A stretch of DNA of 64,000 bases from contig JAUSAW010000002.1 of NCBI GenBank assembly GCA_030652335.1, positions 205,866 through 269,865 of the forward strand, in the 5' to 3' direction. Shown piece after piece: positions 25,596-32,759 of the stretch. Made by a program: the position numbers and the translations under genes. The DNA comes from Gammaproteobacteria bacterium (GTDB lineage: Bacteria; Pseudomonadota; Gammaproteobacteria; Francisellales; CACEW01). Numbering within the stretch: position 1 is the first letter of the stretch; each line of letters begins with the position of its first letter. The notes under the pieces are model-generated. The model made no database searches and was not told the origin of the DNA. It was given only the letters and a program-made list of their open reading frames with translations.

Positions 25596-27059
25596 ATGCG
25601 CTACGTATTGCACCCCGAGATAGTAATAGATTGGCTGACCAAGCGCAAACACCCTGCTGAGTTTTACCTAAAGCTTGAAACCCTTTTAAATGAGAAGGCC
25701 CTATATTGCGCCGCAAGCTCCTTAAGCCATATGGAATCCTATTTCGTCGCTAAGCCAGAACATCGATCCTGGCGTCAATTTTTAAGTCAGGTACAGATTG
25801 CCAAAACCCCAAGTTATCTCGACCATCAAGTATTAAACCAAATCGAAAACTTGGATAATTATCTTATCGAGCAATCGGCTAAAGCGGTTGATGCCAGAAT
25901 CCTATACAGCCCTATGGATCTGCAAGTAGTCAATGACATATTGCCGATTAACTTTATCGATCTAAAAGCTCAGTATCATCAAATGCAACCTGAAATAGAG
26001 CAGGCTATGGATGAGGTGCTTAATAGCACCCAATTTATTATGGGCCCTCCTATCACTCAATTAGAAAACACTCTGGCCGAATATACCGGCAGCCGCTATG
26101 CCTTGACCTGTGGCAATGGTACCGATGCCTTAATGCTGGCCTTAATGGCTATCGATATTCAACCGGGCGATGAAGTCATCACTCCCGTATATAGCTTTTT
26201 TGCCGCTGCCGAAGTGATTGCCCTATTTCAGGCCAAACCTATTTTTGTGGATATAGAAGCGGACACTTATAATATCGACGCATCCAAAATTGCCGAACGC
26301 ATTACGCCTAAAACTCGTGCCATTATCCCCGTCGGGCTCTATGGCCAAGTAGCCGATATGCAGGAAATCAATGCCATTGCGAAACAGTATTCGGCAAAAT
26401 TTGGCCATAAAATTTATGTTATCGAAGATGCCTGCCAGAGCTTTGGTGCGGAATACCAGGGTCAGAAATCCTGTCATTTATCGGATATGGCTTGCACCAG
26501 CTTTTTCCCAGCCAAACCCTTAGGCTGCTATGGCGATGGCGGCGCGATTTTTACCGATGATGAGGCCCTCGCCAAAAAGATCGATATGCTAAGAGTACAC
26601 GGTCAATCGACTCGCTATTTTCATAAATATATCGGCATGAATGCCCGCTTCGATACCTTACAAGCGGCCGTACTCAATGTAAAAATGCGCACCTTTGCCA
26701 ATGAAGTCAGCACGCGCATCGAGCTTGGTCAACGCTATGATACCTTATTAAAAGACTCTGCTATTATCCTGCCTATAATCAGGGCCGACCGAGCCTCGGT
26801 TTATGCGCAATATTCCGTTCGAGTCAGCAATCGAGATGCCGTGATTAAGTATTTATCCGAGCATAAAATCCCGACCTCTGTCCACTACCCTATGCCATTG
26901 CATTTACAAGAGTGCTTTAATGGCCTAGGCTTTAAAGCGGGCGATTACCCTGTGGCAGAGCAAGTCGCTACTGAAATTTTTAGTCTACCGATGAGCCCGT
27001 TTTTAACCGAGGCTCAGCAAAATTATATTGCTAAACATTTACTCGCTGCTTCAAAATAA
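25596..27059 (+). CDS. gnnB: DegT/DnrJ/EryC1-family aminotransferase (GnnB-like, UDP-3-keto-GlcNAc transaminase) with a ~106-aa N-terminal extension
   Basis: The core starts at INFIDLKAQY...FIMGP and has a PLP-lysine region (SFFPAKPLGCYGDGG). It is adjacent to a Gfo/Idh/MocA oxidoreductase and lpxB, as described for gnnA/gnnB. The N-terminal 106 aa look like a degenerate PIN domain. An alternative start is the ATG at 25914. Confidence 0.75.
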   Translation: MRYVLHPEIVIDWLTKRKHPAEFYLKLETLLNEKALYCAASSLSHMESYFVAKPEHRSWRQFLSQVQIAKTPSYLDHQVLNQIENLDNYLIEQSAKAVDARILYSPMDLQVVNDILPINFIDLKAQYHQMQPEIEQAMDEVLNSTQFIMGPPITQLENTLAEYTGSRYALTCGNGTDALMLALMAIDIQPGDEVITPVYSFFAAAEVIALFQAKPIFVDIEADTYNIDASKIAERITPKTRAIIPVGLYGQVADMQEINAIAKQYSAKFGHKIYVIEDACQSFGAEYQGQKSCHLSDMACTSFFPAKPLGCYGDGGAIFTDDEALAKKIDMLRVHGQSTRYFHKYIGMNARFDTLQAAVLNVKMRTFANEVSTRIELGQRYDTLLKDSAIILPIIRADRASVYAQYSVRVSNRDAVIKYLSEHKIPTSVHYPMPLHLQECFNGLGFKAGDYPVAEQVATEIFSLPMSPFLTEAQQNYIAKHLLAASK

Positions 27060-27060
27060 G

Positions 27061-27110
27061 TCCCCTTGCCCCTTGCCCCTTGCGGGAGAGGGCTAGGGAG
27101 CTTGGGACTG
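27061..27110. repeat. GGGAGAGGG-family repeat with (CCCCTTG)x3 micro-tandem, intergenic gnnB/gnnA
   Basis: tccccttgccccttgccccttgcGGGAGAGGGCTAGGGAGc. The core GGGCTAGGGAG recurs, as its reverse complement, at 58397-58428. Confidence 0.65.
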
Positions 27111-27139
27111 GACTAGTTGCCATAATAGGAAAAGTATAA

Positions 27140-28090
27140 ATGATCACCAAACTTAAAGTCGCCGTAATCGGCACAGGTTACCTCGGCGAATTTCATGCTC
27201 AGAAATATGCGCAAATAGACTCAGTCGATTTAGTCGCCATAGTCGATACCAATATCGAGCGTTGCCAAGCCCTTGCCGCAACCTTACATACCAAAGCCGT
27301 AGAAGATTATCGTGAATTAATCGGCAAAGTAGATGCGGTCAGTATCGTCACCCCCACTAGCACTCACTTTGCTATCGGTAAGTTCTTTTTAGAAAATGGC
27401 ATCCATGTATTGATGGAAAAACCGATTACCACGACGGTAGAGGAAGCCGATATATTAATTAGCCTAGCTAAGTCCAAAAATTGCTTATTACAGGTCGGTT
27501 ATTTAGAGCGATTTAACCCCATCTTAAATCACGTCGAAGGCAAAATTAAGCAGGTTCAATTTATCGAATCCACCCGAATTGCACCCTTTAACCCCCGCAA
27601 TAAAGATGTCAACGTCGTGCTGGATCTGATGATCCATGATATCGATTTAATTCAGCACCTCGTGAATGCCCCAATCGAAAGAATTGACGCCAATGGCGCC
27701 TGTGTATTGACGCAAGAAATCGATATCGCCAATGCCAGGATATTATTTGCCAATGGCTGCGTGGCTAACGTAACGGCTAGTAGAATTAGTTTAAAACCTG
27801 AACGCAAGATGCGCATATTTCAGCACGATGCCTATATTTCTTTAGATCTTCAAAATAAACAGGTTAGCATCTGTACCCGAGGTCAGGGTGAGATGTTCCC
27901 CGGCATCCCTACTATCGAACGCGAAGAGCATACCATCACCCAATCCGATGCCCTGCTCGAAGAGATTAAAGCTTTCGTTAACGCCATTTTAAATAAAACC
28001 CCGGTATTAGTGACCGGTGAAGATGGCAAAATCGCCTTGCAGACCGCCCTTGAAATTACCCGCCTGGTAAAAGCAGGAGTGTTTGCATGA
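27140..28090 (+). CDS. gnnA: Gfo/Idh/MocA-family oxidoreductase (GnnA-like, UDP-GlcNAc 3-dehydrogenase)
   Basis: N-terminal Rossmann VAVIGTGYLGEFHA and EKP motif (LMEKPIT). It overlaps the lpxB start by 4 nt. Confidence 0.7.
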   Translation: MITKLKVAVIGTGYLGEFHAQKYAQIDSVDLVAIVDTNIERCQALAATLHTKAVEDYRELIGKVDAVSIVTPTSTHFAIGKFFLENGIHVLMEKPITTTVEEADILISLAKSKNCLLQVGYLERFNPILNHVEGKIKQVQFIESTRIAPFNPRNKDVNVVLDLMIHDIDLIQHLVNAPIERIDANGACVLTQEIDIANARILFANGCVANVTASRISLKPERKMRIFQHDAYISLDLQNKQVSICTRGQGEMFPGIPTIEREEHTITQSDALLEEIKAFVNAILNKTPVLVTGEDGKIALQTALEITRLVKAGVFA

Positions 28091-29280
28091 GCCGAATACT
28101 GTTTGTAGCAGGCGAAGCCTCTGGAGATGCTCATGCCTCCGAGGTCGCTAAAGCCCTAAAGTTACAACAGCCTGGCATTACTCTCGTCGGTATTGGCGGT
28201 CAAAAAATGCGCGAAGCCGGCGTGGAAATCATCTTCGATGCTTCTGAAATCGCCGTAGTTGGAATCGTCGAAGTCATTAAGCACTACCCCGCCATAAAAC
28301 GCGCCTGGAACAAAGCCGTCGACCAATTAAAAAATCATCGTCCAGACTTAATCATTTTGGTGGACTACCCAGGTTTTAATCTGCGCCTAGCCAAGCTCGC
28401 CAAACAGATGGGCATTAAAGTGCTCTATTACATAAGCCCGCAAATTTGGGCCTGGCATCAAAGCCGTATAACAAAGATCAAACAGACCGTCGATCACATG
28501 GCAGTAATCTTCCCCTTTGAAGTCGCCTTCTATAGCAAAGCCAATATCCCAGTAACCTATGTCGGATCACCTTTAGCCGAGTCAGTAATCCCCATCGGTA
28601 AAGACAACGCGAAGCGACAAATTATCCCCTCCCTCCTCGAGGGGGAGGGTCAGGGAGAGGGGGCTTCACCTTTTCCAATAATCGGCCTACTACCAGGCAG
28701 CCGCAAAAGCGAAATATCGCGACTCATGCCTCTATTGCTAGAGTCGGCTAAAGCCTTAAAAGCGATTTATCCCAATGCGCAATTCTTATTGCCTATTGCC
28801 AGCACCTTAAGCGAAGCAGATTTCCAGCAATTTTTACCTCCCCCCATCGCGGGGGAGGTCGACATGCGAAGCTTGTCGGGAGAGGGGATACGAATTATCA
28901 AAAACAATAGTCACGCCGCCATAGAAGCTTGCGATGTTATTATATGCTCCTCCGGTACAGTCACGCTCGAAGCCGCCATCTTAAGCACCCCCATGGTCTT
29001 AATTTACAAAACCGCCAAAATTACCTATGAGCTTGGCAAGCGCCTTATTAAAATTAAATACATCGGCCTTTGCAATATCTTAGCTGATCGCCCTATTGTG
29101 CCTGAATTAATACAGGATAATGCCAATGTAAAAAGCATCGTAGCGCATACCCGTAAATTATTAGAGGATCAAGTTTGCCGCGAACAAACTTTAAAAGATT
29201 TAGCCTGGGTCCGCGAGCAATTAGGGCAGGATAGAACCGGAAATAAAGTGGCTGAACTGGCAGTGAGACTTATTAAATAA
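28087..29280 (+). CDS. lpxB: Lipid-A-disaccharide synthase, carrying two in-frame repeat insertions
   Basis: ILFVAGEASGDAHASEV N-terminus, YISPQIWAWHQSR, LLPGSR, SGTVTLEAA. The extra segments PSLLEGEGQGEGASP and PPPIAGEVDMRSLSGEG coincide with palindromic DNA repeats. Confidence 0.9.
   Translation: MSRILFVAGEASGDAHASEVAKALKLQQPGITLVGIGGQKMREAGVEIIFDASEIAVVGIVEVIKHYPAIKRAWNKAVDQLKNHRPDLIILVDYPGFNLRLAKLAKQMGIKVLYYISPQIWAWHQSRITKIKQTVDHMAVIFPFEVAFYSKANIPVTYVGSPLAESVIPIGKDNAKRQIIPSLLEGEGQGEGASPFPIIGLLPGSRKSEISRLMPLLLESAKALKAIYPNAQFLLPIASTLSEADFQQFLPPPIAGEVDMRSLSGEGIRIIKNNSHAAIEACDVIICSSGTVTLEAAILSTPMVLIYKTAKITYELGKRLIKIKYIGLCNILADRPIVPELIQDNANVKSIVAHTRKLLEDQVCREQTLKDLAWVREQLGQDRTGNKVAELAVRLIK
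28626..28664. repeat. G/C-rich palindromic repeat inside lpxB (in frame)
   Basis: CCCCTCCCTCctcgaGGGGGAGGGtcaGGGAGAGGGGGc. It belongs to the GGGAGAGGG family. Confidence 0.7.
28836..28887. repeat. Double-hairpin palindromic repeat inside lpxB (in frame)
   Basis: ACCTCCCCCatcgcGGGGGAGGT (perfect 9-bp arms), then CGACAtgcgaagctTGTCG, then GGAGAGGGG. Confidence 0.7.
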
Positions 29281-29318
29281 CGCTCAACCCCTAGTCTTTA
29301 TGGCTTTTAGCAAAGTAA

Positions 29319-30959
29319 ATGACTAAAATTGGATTTGCGCCCCATATTTCCAAGGAACAGGAAATGCTTGCAAGAAAATGCCATGATATCTCTAGTGTAG
29401 AAGCGCTTTCTGATGGCCAAAAAGCACTCTATAAGGCCATTTTTAACTCAGAAAATAGTGAAATATTTTTGAAAGTTCATTTTGCTATGCTGGGACAATC
29501 CGGCGTGAATAGACTTAAATTAATTTGCTACTTTACAAAGTATATTCTAGAAGATTTGCAAACTACAGATCCCAAGTGGTTCATTGCTATAAAGCCAGCT
29601 GTCGATAGGTTAAGCAAGCACGAACTCTCAGGAACATTTTGGGCGTTTATTAAACATATCATAAAGGAAAATCTCAGTACAGCGATTAATGAAAATGTTA
29701 TTAGAATGGGACTTCACTTCTTATTTTTAGCTAAACAGTTTCGAATCTTAGGTCAGCAACATTTTATATTTGACTCATTTAATCGATCCACTTATAAAAC
29801 ATTAACAGCCTCGAATCATTATTTTGAAGAATTCAACATTCACCTTAAAGCTGCCGGCTTGACTGATAGTAGTTTACTAAAGTATTTTAGTATTGAAAAA
29901 AAGAAGTTTGACATAATTAATAATAAATGTGCCGGAGCCTTTTTTCCTGATTTTGTTAAACTAACATCCTTTATTTGTTTAATAGCTAATGTCATTATTA
30001 ACTTCTTTGAACCCGCAAGCGAGGACTATTCCCTCATAAAATTCGCCCTGCTTTTTAACACTTTTATACCATTCTATATGCTCTTGGCAGATCCTGCCGG
30101 CATTCGTTTACATGATGTAAATATTGCGATAATTATTACACTTCTGCTACACAGCTCCTTCACGTTTGACTTACCCCTCGCGTTTATTTCAATGCAACAG
30201 CTACCCTCAATGCATGATTATTTCAATATGAAATATAGAGATTTATTTATACAAAGATCGGAATGGTATCTTCAGGCTTATAAAGCTTATCAACTTAAAC
30301 GAATCACCATTATCGACACGATTACACAGACTATAGAATCACATTATGCCATAAGGCCAGACTATATTTATGAGACAGCCGACATCGGAAAGTCGCCTTC
30401 ACCTGATAGGCCTATTTCTGTCACAGGCTCTTTAGCCGAAGATATTACATCACAAAGAAGTGGCCCTAAAGTTAAAACCAGACCACTTTCTGCAGAGGGT
30501 GATTTAACTGCTGCTGGTAAAGTAAGCCCAATAGCACAAGCTGTTATTCATTTTAGTAATGGCTTAAGTTGCCCATCTTCAAGTGCTACAAAAATTTATA
30601 TTTTAGACTCAACAAGACAAATTTATGGCTGCCTAGATTCATCAGCCTTAAAATTAAACGGCATGACTGATCTGCAAATAGAGTATTTTAAAAATGTGCT
30701 AGAAAAGCATGTGGATGGCGAATTTTTAGCGCAAAAATCAAGAAGCGAAGCAGGCATTAAGATAGAAACGAATCCGACAGTCTTCTTTAGGGCTGGGGTT
30801 GATAAAACAGACCCTGCGCGTTACAAACTTAAAATTGTTAGTCACAGCTCAGCTGTAGATGGTGGCGCTCGTGTTTTTAGTCAGCGAATTGCTAGTGATA
30901 CAGACGCCGTGTTAGAAAACTTTTGCTTTAGCTTAAATAACAAAGCCGCCCATCGATAA
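29319..30959 (+). CDS. Orphan 546-aa protein with a central cluster of hydrophobic helices
   Basis: No recognisable family. Visibly AT-rich. Central TM-like segments are FVKLTSFICLIANVIINFF, LIKFALLFNTFIPFYMLLA and NIAIIITLLLHSSF. It sits between lpxB and lpxA. The start could be 29319 or the better-SD ATG at 29364. Confidence 0.55.
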   Translation: MTKIGFAPHISKEQEMLARKCHDISSVEALSDGQKALYKAIFNSENSEIFLKVHFAMLGQSGVNRLKLICYFTKYILEDLQTTDPKWFIAIKPAVDRLSKHELSGTFWAFIKHIIKENLSTAINENVIRMGLHFLFLAKQFRILGQQHFIFDSFNRSTYKTLTASNHYFEEFNIHLKAAGLTDSSLLKYFSIEKKKFDIINNKCAGAFFPDFVKLTSFICLIANVIINFFEPASEDYSLIKFALLFNTFIPFYMLLADPAGIRLHDVNIAIIITLLLHSSFTFDLPLAFISMQQLPSMHDYFNMKYRDLFIQRSEWYLQAYKAYQLKRITIIDTITQTIESHYAIRPDYIYETADIGKSPSPDRPISVTGSLAEDITSQRSGPKVKTRPLSAEGDLTAAGKVSPIAQAVIHFSNGLSCPSSSATKIYILDSTRQIYGCLDSSALKLNGMTDLQIEYFKNVLEKHVDGEFLAQKSRSEAGIKIETNPTVFFRAGVDKTDPARYKLKIVSHSSAVDGGARVFSQRIASDTDAVLENFCFSLNNKAAHR

Positions 30960-31204: not shown

Positions 31205-31984
31205 TTAACGGACAAATCCGCGCTGGGATGCAGCCATAAAATCCAGCCAGACTTTAATTTCCGGACAGTTTTTTTGCATTTCGGTTAAGATACTTAAAGC
31301 CTCATCAATAGGCAAATTCTGCATAAACAATACTTTATAGGCATCACGAAGGCCATGAATCGCTTCTTTGCTGAAGCCATTACGCTTTAGGCCTCGTATA
31401 TTAAGCCCATGAATGGTCGCGGTGCTTTTATTGCGGGAGCTGGCGACAACATAAGGCAATATATCTTTTTCAACCAGAGCACCATGCACTAAAAAGCTAT
31501 AGGAACCGACCCTCGAAAACTGATGCACGGCGCAATAAGCACTTATGGTGACATTGTTTTCAAGCAAGACGTGACCTGCCAAGCAGGAATAATTGACCAT
31601 GACATTGTTATTGCCGACCTGGCAATCATGGGCGATGTGCGCATAGGACATTAAGTAATTGTTATTGCCAATTCTGGTTATCCCATCGGCCTTAACGGTC
31701 GCTCGGTTAACAGTGGAGCCTTCGCGAAAGATATTGTTATCACCGATCTCTAAGAAAGTAGGCTCGCCCTTATAGCCGGTGTCTTGAGGATCGCCGCCTA
31801 AAACGGCAAAGGAATGCACCTGGTTATTTTTACCCATGGTGGTATTTTGCAATATAACAGCATTAGGATAAATTTTTGTACCTTGGCCTATGGCGACATT
31901 GGGGCCGATATATGCATTCGCGCCTATTTCAACATCGGAGTCAATGCGTGCAGTTGAATCGATTGTGGCCGAGGGATGAATCAT
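31205..31984 (-). CDS. lpxA: Second, divergent LpxA paralogue (acyl-ACP:UDP-GlcNAc/GlcNAc3N acyltransferase)
   Basis: Left-handed beta-helix hexapeptide repeats plus the catalytic HIAHDC block and a C-terminal helical domain ending QRGFVR. The ATG at 31984 lies 1 nt after the stop of the upstream lpxA. The track start at 32002 is a GTG. Confidence 0.8.
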   Translation of the reverse strand: MIHPSATIDSTARIDSDVEIGANAYIGPNVAIGQGTKIYPNAVILQNTTMGKNNQVHSFAVLGGDPQDTGYKGEPTFLEIGDNNIFREGSTVNRATVKADGITRIGNNNYLMSYAHIAHDCQVGNNNVMVNYSCLAGHVLLENNVTISAYCAVHQFSRVGSYSFLVHGALVEKDILPYVVASSRNKSTATIHGLNIRGLKRNGFSKEAIHGLRDAYKVLFMQNLPIDEALSILTEMQKNCPEIKVWLDFMAASQRGFVR

Positions 31985-31985
31985 G

Positions 31986-32759
31986 TTATCGGATAATCCC
32001 ACGCTCAGAGGTCTCTAAAAAGTCAGCCAAAATCTTAATTTCGGCACATTCAGCCTCCATTTCCCGCAAGCCTTCAATGGCTTCAACGACCCGCAGACCT
32101 TGACGATAGATGATTTTGTAGGCTTTGCGCAAACTTTGTAGGCTAGCAGGTGAAAAACCATGACGCTTTAAGCCTTCCACGTTAAGCCCACATACTGTCG
32201 GGCTAACGCCACCTGTAATCATCACATAGGGCGGAATATCTTTTAAAATAATGCTGGCGTTGGATATAAAACTATAGGCACCGATCTGACAAAATTGATG
32301 CACCCCACACATACCGCTCATAATAACAAAATCGGCGATTTTGACATGGCCGGCGATCGCTACGGAGTTGGCGAATATGCAGCCGTTGCCAATAACGCAA
32401 TCGTGAGCTACATGGACATAAGCCATAAACAAATTATCATTACCAACCTTTGTTAATAGCTGGTCCTGAATGGTGCCACGATGTATGGTTACACATTCGC
32501 GAAAAGTATTGCGATCACCAATTTCTAAAAAAGTGCGCTCGTCTTTATATTTCTTATCTTGTGGATCTTCACCTATTGAGGCAAATTGAAAGATTTTATT
32601 TGCCTTGCCGATTTTAGTCGGGCCTTTAATAACAACATGCGGACCGATCCAGCAACCCTCACCAATTTCAACATCCGCACCGATAACAGAATAAGCACCG
32701 ATTTCAACGTTTTCAGCAATTTTTGCATTGGGATGTATTATGGCGGTTGTATGGATCAC
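31986..32759 (-). CDS. lpxA: Acyl-ACP:UDP-N-acetylglucosamine O-acyltransferase (canonical copy)
   Basis: Colinear with E. coli LpxA: QFASIGE.PQD.KY, EIGDRN.FRE.VTIHRGT, HVAHDC, GLN.EGLKR.GFS, ERGIIR. Confidence 0.9.
   Translation of the reverse strand: MIHTTAIIHPNAKIAENVEIGAYSVIGADVEIGEGCWIGPHVVIKGPTKIGKANKIFQFASIGEDPQDKKYKDERTFLEIGDRNTFRECVTIHRGTIQDQLLTKVGNDNLFMAYVHVAHDCVIGNGCIFANSVAIAGHVKIADFVIMSGMCGVHQFCQIGAYSFISNASIILKDIPPYVMITGGVSPTVCGLNVEGLKRHGFSPASLQSLRKAYKIIYRQGLRVVEAIEGLREMEAECAEIKILADFLETSERGIIR

Follow-up and report, generated by a model that had tools for sequence, protein, structure and literature searches.

We identified two short repeat elements, here called C and D, inside the lpxB gene (lipid-A-disaccharide synthase) of an uncultured gammaproteobacterium, in a 64,000-nucleotide stretch of contig JAUSAW010000002.1 (the window). 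The two inserts very probably belong to the widespread BoxC / PIT / TM_ECO family of intrastrand triplex motifs, having entered the gene at the DNA level and been tolerated in loops of the protein. This motif has been known since the 1990s and is abundant in many bacteria, where it has been described as intergenic; here it lies within the gene of a conserved and normally indispensable enzyme and is read through. A known repeat family is found in a situation like that of the Rickettsia palindromic elements (RPEs), which lie in frame within genes, a combination that we have not found described.

In the triplex motif a C-rich arm is separated by a short loop from a complementary G-rich arm, and a loop of 3 nucleotides (nt) leads to a second G-rich arm; the TM_ECO pattern is written 5'-CCCTCNCCC N3-6 GGGNGAGGG N3 GGGNGAGGG[G/T/C/-]-3' (Holder et al. 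2015, NAR 43:10126, PMC4666352). According to the historical account given in that paper, TM_ECO was formerly BoxC, described in the 1990s, and then PIT, for potential intrastrand triplex (2000, Maher and co-workers; Hoyne & Maher 2002). The motif was counted 3610 times in 262 proteobacterial genomes. All 23 copies in Escherichia coli MG1655 are intergenic, some of them as inverted pairs, and the motif was reported to have no link to transposons, phages or plasmids and no transposase association (PMC4666352). Single-stranded copies form a stable triplex in vitro, but in vivo footprinting gave no support for a stable triplex. Local sequence variability is raised at motif copies and includes deletions that leave a hairpin (PMC4666352).

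Element C is a canonical copy of the motif. Its arm 1, CCCTCCCTC (28627-28635), matches CCCTCNCCC with the one mismatch allowed, the loop CTCGA and the complementary arm 2 GGGGGAGGG (28641-28649) follow, and the loop TCA leads into arm 3, GGGAGAGGG(GG) (28653-28663). The whole element reads CCCCTCCCTC-CTCGA-GGGGGAGGG-TCA-GGGAGAGGGGG, and it passes a mirror-repeat triad check with at most one mismatch. Element D is a rearranged copy. It opens with the hairpin ACCTCCCCC (28836-28844), CATCGC, GGGGGAGGT (28851-28859), which has one mismatch; its arm 1, CCTCCCCCC, is complementary to its own arm 2 and lies further from the consensus than that of C. In both elements loop 1 falls within the 3-6 nt of the pattern and is followed by a complementary G-rich arm 2. 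The 3-nt loop 2 of D is replaced by a secondary palindrome of about 19 nt, CGACA-TGCGAAGCT-TGTCG (28860-28878), a departure from the 3-nt rule despite a perfect arm 3, GGGAGAGGGG (28878-28887).

Two further copies, A and B, are intergenic (Table 1). Arm 1 is truncated or degenerate in both, shrunk to CCCC in B, and a G-rich arm 2 is present in both (GGGAGAGGG in A, GGGGGAGGG in B). An exact 3-nt loop 2 with arm 3 is found in B (CTA + GGGAGAGGG) as in C (TCA + GGGAGAGGG), and A is a partial fit (CTA + GGGAGCTTG). Element A reads, in order, CCCCTTG three times in tandem (27062-27083), GGGAGAGGG-CTA-GGGAG and CTTGGGAC; the triplication probably arose from slippage at the arm 1/loop junction of the motif.

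The repeat census covered the 64-kb window plus about 74 kb of DNA from relatives. Within the 64 kb, GGGAGAGGG occurs four times and is confined to elements A, B, C and D. The core GGGNGAGGG-NNN-GGGAG occurs three times (27084, 28641 and, on the minus strand, 58402) versus 0.00 in 100 dinucleotide-preserving shuffles. Plain G-rich purine runs are not enriched in the window (15 versus 14.7 in shuffles), so the signal comes from the structured pattern rather than from base composition. Element C is the only complete intrastrand-triplex (class II) motif that our finder reports in the window; the expectation from 20 shuffles is about 0.15 per 64 kb. ViennaRNA, which models hairpins only, predicts hairpins in each of the four elements. 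The DNA fold of D (-15.2 kcal/mol, z = -3.3) contains two adjacent hairpins and the z-score of A (-2.6) is significant; C and B fall short of significance, since C-run/G-run sequences still pair after shuffling. Fold energy was set aside as evidence, as only D and A beat the shuffles. An Rfam search of 26900-29400 at E <= 1 returned no match, and a 26-mer specific to D, used as a test of D as a mobile subfamily, had no match in metagenome contigs.

Comparison with other LpxB proteins supports C and D as lineage-specific, in-frame insertions in loops. The protein gains 11 residues at the site of C (site 1) and about 11 at the site of D (site 2). The site 1 segment, from a conserved GK to GLLPGSR, has 16 amino acids (aa) in 114 of 120 LpxB proteins; the window protein, with 27 aa, exceeds all others. 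The site 2 segment, from ASTL to the next beta-strand, has 14-16 aa in 113 of the 120 and 26 aa in the window, a length exceeded only by one relative, P0003 (48 aa). Element D is unique to the window among the 120 proteins. Element C is absent from the relatives L001 and L007 and from all distant LpxB proteins in alignments of 16 and of 120 sequences.

We also aligned the codons of the window gene with those of its five closest lpxB orthologues, which share a conserved gene order and encode proteins of 368, 377, 385, 404 and 415 aa with 63-76% identity. At site 1 a 36-nt motif stands between ...CAA ATT ATC and GCT TCA CCT TTT CCA ATA ATC GGC. This is a near-clean insertion of 12 codons, since the downstream SPFPIIG still resembles the ancestral xYPVIG of L001 and L007. 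At site 2 about 17 codons stand in place of about 5 ancestral ones.

An AlphaFold2 model of the window LpxB, built from the alignment of 120 sequences, has a mean predicted local distance difference test score (pLDDT) of 91.6 and a predicted template modelling score (pTM) of 0.89, and its best fold match is E. coli LpxB (5w8s). DSSP assigns coil to residues 184-197, between the helix 172-179 (with a turn at 181-183) and the strand 198-202 that carries GLLPGSR, and to residues 247-267, between the helix 243-246 and the strand 268-272. The 10-residue blocks that span the inserts have mean pLDDT values of 63-79, versus 91.6 for the protein. A structure-sequence alignment with E. coli LpxB places gaps at both insert sites. 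In the model both inserts lie just N-terminal to strands beta1 and beta3 of the C-terminal Rossmann domain, and site 1 is the linker that joins the N- and C-terminal domains. From the general topology of the Rossmann fold, both loops would lie at the edge of the sheet opposite the nucleotide-sugar cleft.

An earlier sequence-only reading of this DNA had described C and D as GC-rich palindromic hairpins inserted in frame into loop regions of lpxB and related to the intergenic copies A and B. Much of this is borne out. The reading frame is intact and the elements are read through as PSLLEGEGQGEG(ASP) and PPPIAGEVDMRSLSGEG; the model and DSSP place both in coil of low pLDDT; the protein and codon alignments show additions, with no equivalent residues in orthologues; and the family is present elsewhere, A and B sharing the common core or GGGAGAGGG. 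Both quoted element sequences are present, save for an extra C in arm 1 of D. The hairpin description is correct but incomplete, as the diagnostic third G-rich arm was listed without being recognised.

The gene otherwise resembles a normal lpxB. Its product matches Pfam LpxB (PF02684) with E = 5e-96 over profile positions 1-360 of 374, and the E. coli LpxB structures 5w8n, 5w8s and 5w8x with E = 1e-52. None of the 38 positions that never vary among the 120 homologues has changed, which argues for a working enzyme. That lpxB is essential here, as the earlier reading put it, is an assumption; the 64-kb window contains one copy of the gene.

We compared relatives in a neighbour-joining tree of Gfo and LpxB (gap-free columns, L007 as outgroup; WIN denotes the window lineage). 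The tree contains ((L003, L005), L006), with 100% bootstrap for the trio and 78% for L003 + L005, and (WIN, L001), with 98.5%. At site 1, WIN carries a three-arm motif, L003 a three-arm copy of 36 nt, and L005 a 24-nt hairpin, CCCTCTC-TCCTTGC-GGGAGAGGGG, which resembles arm 1 joined to arm 3 once 12 nt are lost. The 9-aa extension of L006 at this site is unrelated, and L001, L007 and all distant homologues have no insert. The left junction is ATT ATC/CCCTC in WIN and ATT ATT/CCCTC in L003 and L005, a synonymous third-position difference. Nucleotide identity in sliding windows of 30 codons places codons about 33-235 of the WIN gene closer to L003/L005 and both ends closer to L001. The gene looks mosaic, suggestive of recombination within it, because its middle and its ends are closest to different relatives. 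The simplest reading would be one old insertion at site 1 that was later spread or removed by recombination. Independent gains in WIN and in L003/L005 are not preferred, given the same left junction and the mosaic central part of lpxB.

Site 2 has a different history. L003 carries there a clean, in-frame insertion of 102 nt (L003:10740-10850) composed of a pair of unlike triplex-type motifs that face opposite ways: minus-strand TCCCCTCT-TTGAGAA-AGAGGGGT-T-AGGGGAGA and plus-strand TCCTCCCT-TTGTAAA-AGGGAGGC-A-GGGAGGGA. The pair is of the type CCCCTCTTT.../...AAAGGGAGG-CA-GGGAGGGA. L005, L006 and L007 have the ancestral length at site 2, and L001 is 4 aa shorter. As WIN has element D and L003 a different motif pair, these were independent events in the same loop.

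The lpxB gene is a local hotspot of insertions and deletions (indels). Among about 20 orthologous syntenic genes, only LpxB has internal indels of at least 4 aa, and the lpxB indels of the closest relatives are mostly, but not exclusively, triplex or hairpin repeats in the loops of sites 1 and 2. In L003, lpxB contains three of the four complete triplex motifs found in 21 kb. The arm loss, small deletions and replacement seen here match the local instability that Holder et al. reported for intergenic copies.

Assembly or binning error, or decay of lpxB into a pseudogene, might be suspected, as the source is a metagenome-assembled genome (MAG). We regard such an artefact as extremely improbable. 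Neither insert breaks the frame, and the domain encoded 3' of them, the C-terminal one, is fully conserved in the LpxB alignments. Related site 1 elements occur in independently assembled contigs: those of L003 and L004, from JGI and NCBI records, share an identical 415-aa LpxB with repeats at both sites, and L005 has its own version of site 1. The AlphaFold2 model is also confident outside the loops.

The motif is not restricted to this lineage. A scan of one genome per species with the pattern GGGRGAGGG-NNN-GGGAGAGGG gave at least 120 loci (L008-L127) with at least 140 matches. Hosts among the matches listed include Alpha-, Beta- and Gammaproteobacteria, a MAG labelled delta proteobacterium, Verrucomicrobiota, Acidobacteriota, Planctomycetes, Patescibacteria, the cyanobacterium Leptolyngbya, Chloroflexi and Thermodesulfovibrionia, at locus GC contents of 36% to 74%. 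A complementary C-rich arm, typically tcCCCTCTCCCcttgcGGGAGAGGGttaGGGAGAGGGg, is present in the upstream flank of 119 of the 140 matches listed. This flank was outside the search pattern and the hosts span many phyla, so that the architecture is shared well beyond the Proteobacteria. Judged by these matches, the range of the motif is wider than the 262 proteobacterial genomes of the 2015 survey (PMC4666352). The matches listed have a near-constant form: C-arm, loop, GGGAGAGGG, YYR, GGGAGAGGG. In E. coli, one published copy has a match in 4190 of 5426 complete genomes, and no annotated feature lies beneath the five best-listed matches.

A copy was counted as genic only when Pfam domains flanked it on both sides in the same frame, because long stop-free spans are unreliable in GC-rich DNA. 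Ten candidate open reading frames (ORFs) were tested, and at least 6 of the 140 matches listed are genic in-frame copies, in either orientation and in several frames (Table 1). Candidates at L071 and L093 were dropped for want of Pfam domains. The prmC product has 31 residues where E. coli HemK (2b3t) has 5, an insertion of 26 aa directly before strand beta1 of the Rossmann fold. Intergenic location has been reported for the E. coli copies but is outside the sequence definition of the motif; C and D inside lpxB depart from it. We found no published statement of in-frame genic BoxC/PIT copies in a literature coverage that is incomplete; a 2007 survey of intragenic enterobacterial repeats does not mention BoxC (Delihas 2007, PMC2759123).

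Several points weigh against the entry of two family copies into lpxB. The membership of D appears weaker, because its loop 2 is 19 nt long and its arm 2 ends in T, and part of D may be old target sequence. Neither a consistent target-site duplication nor any other mark of insertion was seen. Flanking direct repeats of 9 nt occur at site 1 only (AAAATTATT...AAAATTATC in L005), are clearest in L005 and L003 and weaker in WIN, and probably reflect a single event. A single ancestral insertion at site 1 also needs recombination or loss, because the insert-free L001 is the sister of WIN.

Alternatively, the G-rich hairpins may have originated in place, by slippage, local duplication or template switching, with a convergent likeness to the family. 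The lack of a target-site duplication is compatible with this, as are the triplicated CCCCTTG of element A, an instance of slippage acting on such sequences, and the lack of a transposase association (PMC4666352). The middle of D (MRSLS) may also align with ancestral loop codons such as KNLDN or QANLN. We nevertheless consider origin in place unlikely. It may apply to D but is unlikely for element C because C fits the 27-position cross-phylum consensus with one mismatch. The 14-position core is present in three of the four window copies with no match in any of 100 shuffles, and an architecture that recurs in many phyla favours template copying over repeated convergence.

We therefore favor insertion of existing motif copies and propose the following scenario. 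Both copies would have entered lpxB as DNA and survived for a combination of reasons. The length changes are multiples of three. Both copies are open in the frame that is read, the motif being read elsewhere in several frames and both orientations. The encoded peptides, flexible and rich in Gly/Glu/Pro/Ser, are assumed to be structurally harmless. The loops N-terminal to beta1 and beta3 of the C-terminal Rossmann domain would face away from the catalytic cleft. Other insertions, of the wrong length, in a closed frame or at rigid sites, would have been removed by purifying selection, leaving tolerance as the likely reason for retention. Local instability after insertion could then have produced the variation between lineages, with arm loss to a bare hairpin, deletions in the flanks and a secondary palindrome.

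The elements may instead have a selected function: a DNA triplex or hairpin, or an mRNA hairpin or G-quadruplex, would tune lpxB expression or pause translation at a domain boundary, or the linker peptide itself would be of use. A role in mRNA would be limited to a hairpin or G-quadruplex because RNA, by work that PMC4666352 cites, would not be expected to form a purine-motif triplex; a potential G-quadruplex pattern, G3-N3-G3-N3-G3-N3-G3, can be read directly from the sequence. Structured repeats do recur at the same two loops (triplex-type in WIN and L003, a residual hairpin in L005), LpxB stands alone among about 20 genes in having internal indels, site 1 falls exactly at the inter-domain linker, and the prmC motif of another bacterium likewise lies just before a Rossmann beta1. 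We still find a selected function very unlikely. The sequence, length and family of the elements differ between close relatives; L005 has only a decayed form, and L001, L007 and all distant homologues lack the elements altogether. Earlier PIT work, as summarised in PMC4666352, found neither promoter nor terminator activity. The interdomain and loop positions are equally predicted by a pure tolerance filter.

It also seems rather unlikely, though worth stating, that the triplex motifs are an actively dispersing cross-phylum element, copied by an enzyme or repair pathway that prefers certain DNA contexts, with targeted insertion, or with selected translation pausing at domain boundaries, and are not merely tolerated. 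On this view, targeting or such selection would account for the repeated, independent filling of the two lpxB loops by different triplex motifs in sister lineages and for the in-frame copies at domain boundaries of dnaX, dnaE, prmC and others. If dispersal is targeted, the filled and empty lpxB alleles would offer the first clean view of the insertion of this family.

Tolerated insertion of the triplex motif invites comparison with other small repeats. REP/REPIN sequences are RAYT-mobilised, G/C-rich imperfect palindromes of 20-40 nt that are dispersed, often as inverted pairs, with a GTAG-type 5' tetranucleotide. The lpxB elements share with them the short, G/C-rich imperfect palindrome, but the third arm is no feature of REP. 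No GTAG-type tetranucleotide lies next to elements A-D, and no search aimed at RAYT was made in the window. MITEs, short for miniature inverted-repeat transposable elements, have terminal inverted repeats and a target-site duplication, measure roughly 50-500 bp and derive from insertion sequences (IS). Membership among MITEs was rejected, as the elements are 32-52 nt long, share no target-site duplication and show no IS relationship. ERIC/RU-1-3, RUP and NEMIS (Correia) are also small intergenic repeats with occasional in-frame gene fusions, but they are MITE-like units of 100-170 bp with terminal inverted repeats (Delihas 2007, PMC2759123).

The closest parallel in situation is with RPEs, for which the account of Ogata et al. 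2000 in PMC10969869 gives Rickettsia-specific families of about 150 bp and conserved peptides of about 30-50 aa. Like the RPEs of that account, C and D are palindromic repeat DNA lying in frame in a conserved gene, with peptides compatible with the protein fold, as RPEs do in unrelated housekeeping genes. They differ from RPEs, given there as about 100-150 bp, in their length of 39 and 52 nt, their third arm and a family that spans many phyla. C and D have neither the size, the Rickettsia-specific family nor the conserved peptide of RPEs, and the likeness is one of resemblance, not membership. The likeness to BoxC/PIT/TM_ECO is closer, with the same three-arm architecture, a near-identical sequence (CCCTCNCCC, N3-6, GGGNGAGGG, N3, GGGNGAGGG), single or inverted-pair copies, decay to hairpins and flank deletions, and no associated transposase known. 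The differences are that the E. coli MG1655 copies are intergenic whereas two copies are translated here in a conserved enzyme, that the host is an uncultured gammaproteobacterium of low GC content (about 42%), and that D has a 19-nt palindromic loop 2. The earlier proposal of an RPE-like selfish repeat, active or tolerated in this lineage, gives way to a long-known and very widespread family, and its terms selfish and active go too far. No mobilising enzyme is known for this family, there is no consistent target-site duplication, and the copy at site 1 is old, with decayed forms in two relatives.

These observations suggest that a single gene can turn into a local hotspot of repeat-driven indels. 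Such in-frame copies also turn up at interdomain linkers of proteins from other phyla. Orthologues that have or lack the element are dated filled and empty sites from which the mechanism of insertion and decay may be inferred, and the lpxB hotspot and the cross-phylum genic copies together provide material for the question of how the motif spreads. They also add one more route from non-coding repeat DNA to a loop or linker peptide, a principle already set by RPEs and intragenic ERIC-type repeats.

Table 1. Features of the window and genic copies of the triplex motif at other loci (positions without a locus prefix are those of the window).
Feature	Position	Strand	Remarks
DegT-type aminotransferase	25596-27059		upstream of lpxB; Pfam
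Element A	27060-27108	+	degenerate intergenic copy, between DegT-type and Gfo/Idh/MocA genes
Gfo/Idh/MocA oxidoreductase	27140-28090		upstream of lpxB; Pfam
lpxB (lipid-A-disaccharide synthase)	28087-29280	+	uninterrupted ORF, 397 aa, contains elements C and D
Element C	28626-28664	+	39 nt; canonical triplex-motif copy at lpxB site 1
Element D	28836-28887	+	52 nt; rearranged copy at lpxB site 2
ORF without Pfam match	29319-30959	+	546 aa, directly 3' of lpxB
Two tandem overlapping lpxA-like hexapeptide acyltransferase ORFs	31205-32759	-	265 + 257 aa
Element B	58397-58428	-	intergenic copy; arm 2-loop-arm 3 perfect: GGGGGAGGG-CTA-GGGAGAGGGG
dnaX	L011:4090-5826	-	motif between domain III and tau C-terminal domain; Pfam
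DNA polymerase III alpha-type (dnaE-like), Bradyrhizobium	L026:3411-7376	-	motif between finger and HHH domains; Pfam
FecR-TPR protein	L070:1902-5240	-	in-frame motif; Pfam
prmC	L111:2891-3937	+	motif between N-domain and methyltransferase domain; Pfam
MmeI-type restriction-modification enzyme	L114:3-3395	-	two motif copies between domains; Pfam

The surroundings of lpxB are those of a lipid A locus. The Gfo/Idh/MocA ORF overlaps the start of lpxB, and together with the DegT-type gene it appears to resemble gnnB-gnnA, a pair that makes UDP-GlcNAc3N for lipid A with a backbone of 2,3-diamino sugar. Downstream, on the opposite strand, are two tandem lpxA-like genes, fabZ, lpxD, skp and bamA, named by orthology to loci with precomputed Pfam annotation. 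The tandem lpxA-like arrangement is conserved in L001, L003 and L006. The gene slot directly 3' of lpxB varies between relatives: L003 has an ankyrin-repeat protein there and L001 a UPF0093/CopD-like gene. In the window this variable slot adjoins the indel-prone lpxB.

The spacer between the DegT-type and Gfo genes varies as well. The genes abut in L001 and L006, and L005 has 16 nt without a repeat. The window carries element A in this spacer (27060-27139), versus an inverted palindrome pair of the ATTCCCG...CGGGAAT type in L003 (8966-9056), GTCATTCCCGACTTGATCGGGAATCC ... ATTCCCGCCCTCGCGGGAATGAC. One intergenic site holds different small repeats in different lineages.

By lysyl-tRNA synthetase the nearest named relatives, with 67-69% identity, are Facilibium, Fangia, Caedibacter taeniospiralis and Francisellaceae, and the host is therefore an uncultured, deep-branching gammaproteobacterium. 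The relative L003 has ankyrin-repeat genes and faint F-box hits, which may hint at a host-associated lifestyle. A 408-aa AAA_14/DUF4143 protein of the window (48623-49849, minus strand) is identical on a 1.5-kb contig of run SRR13727531, which therefore probably contains the same organism.

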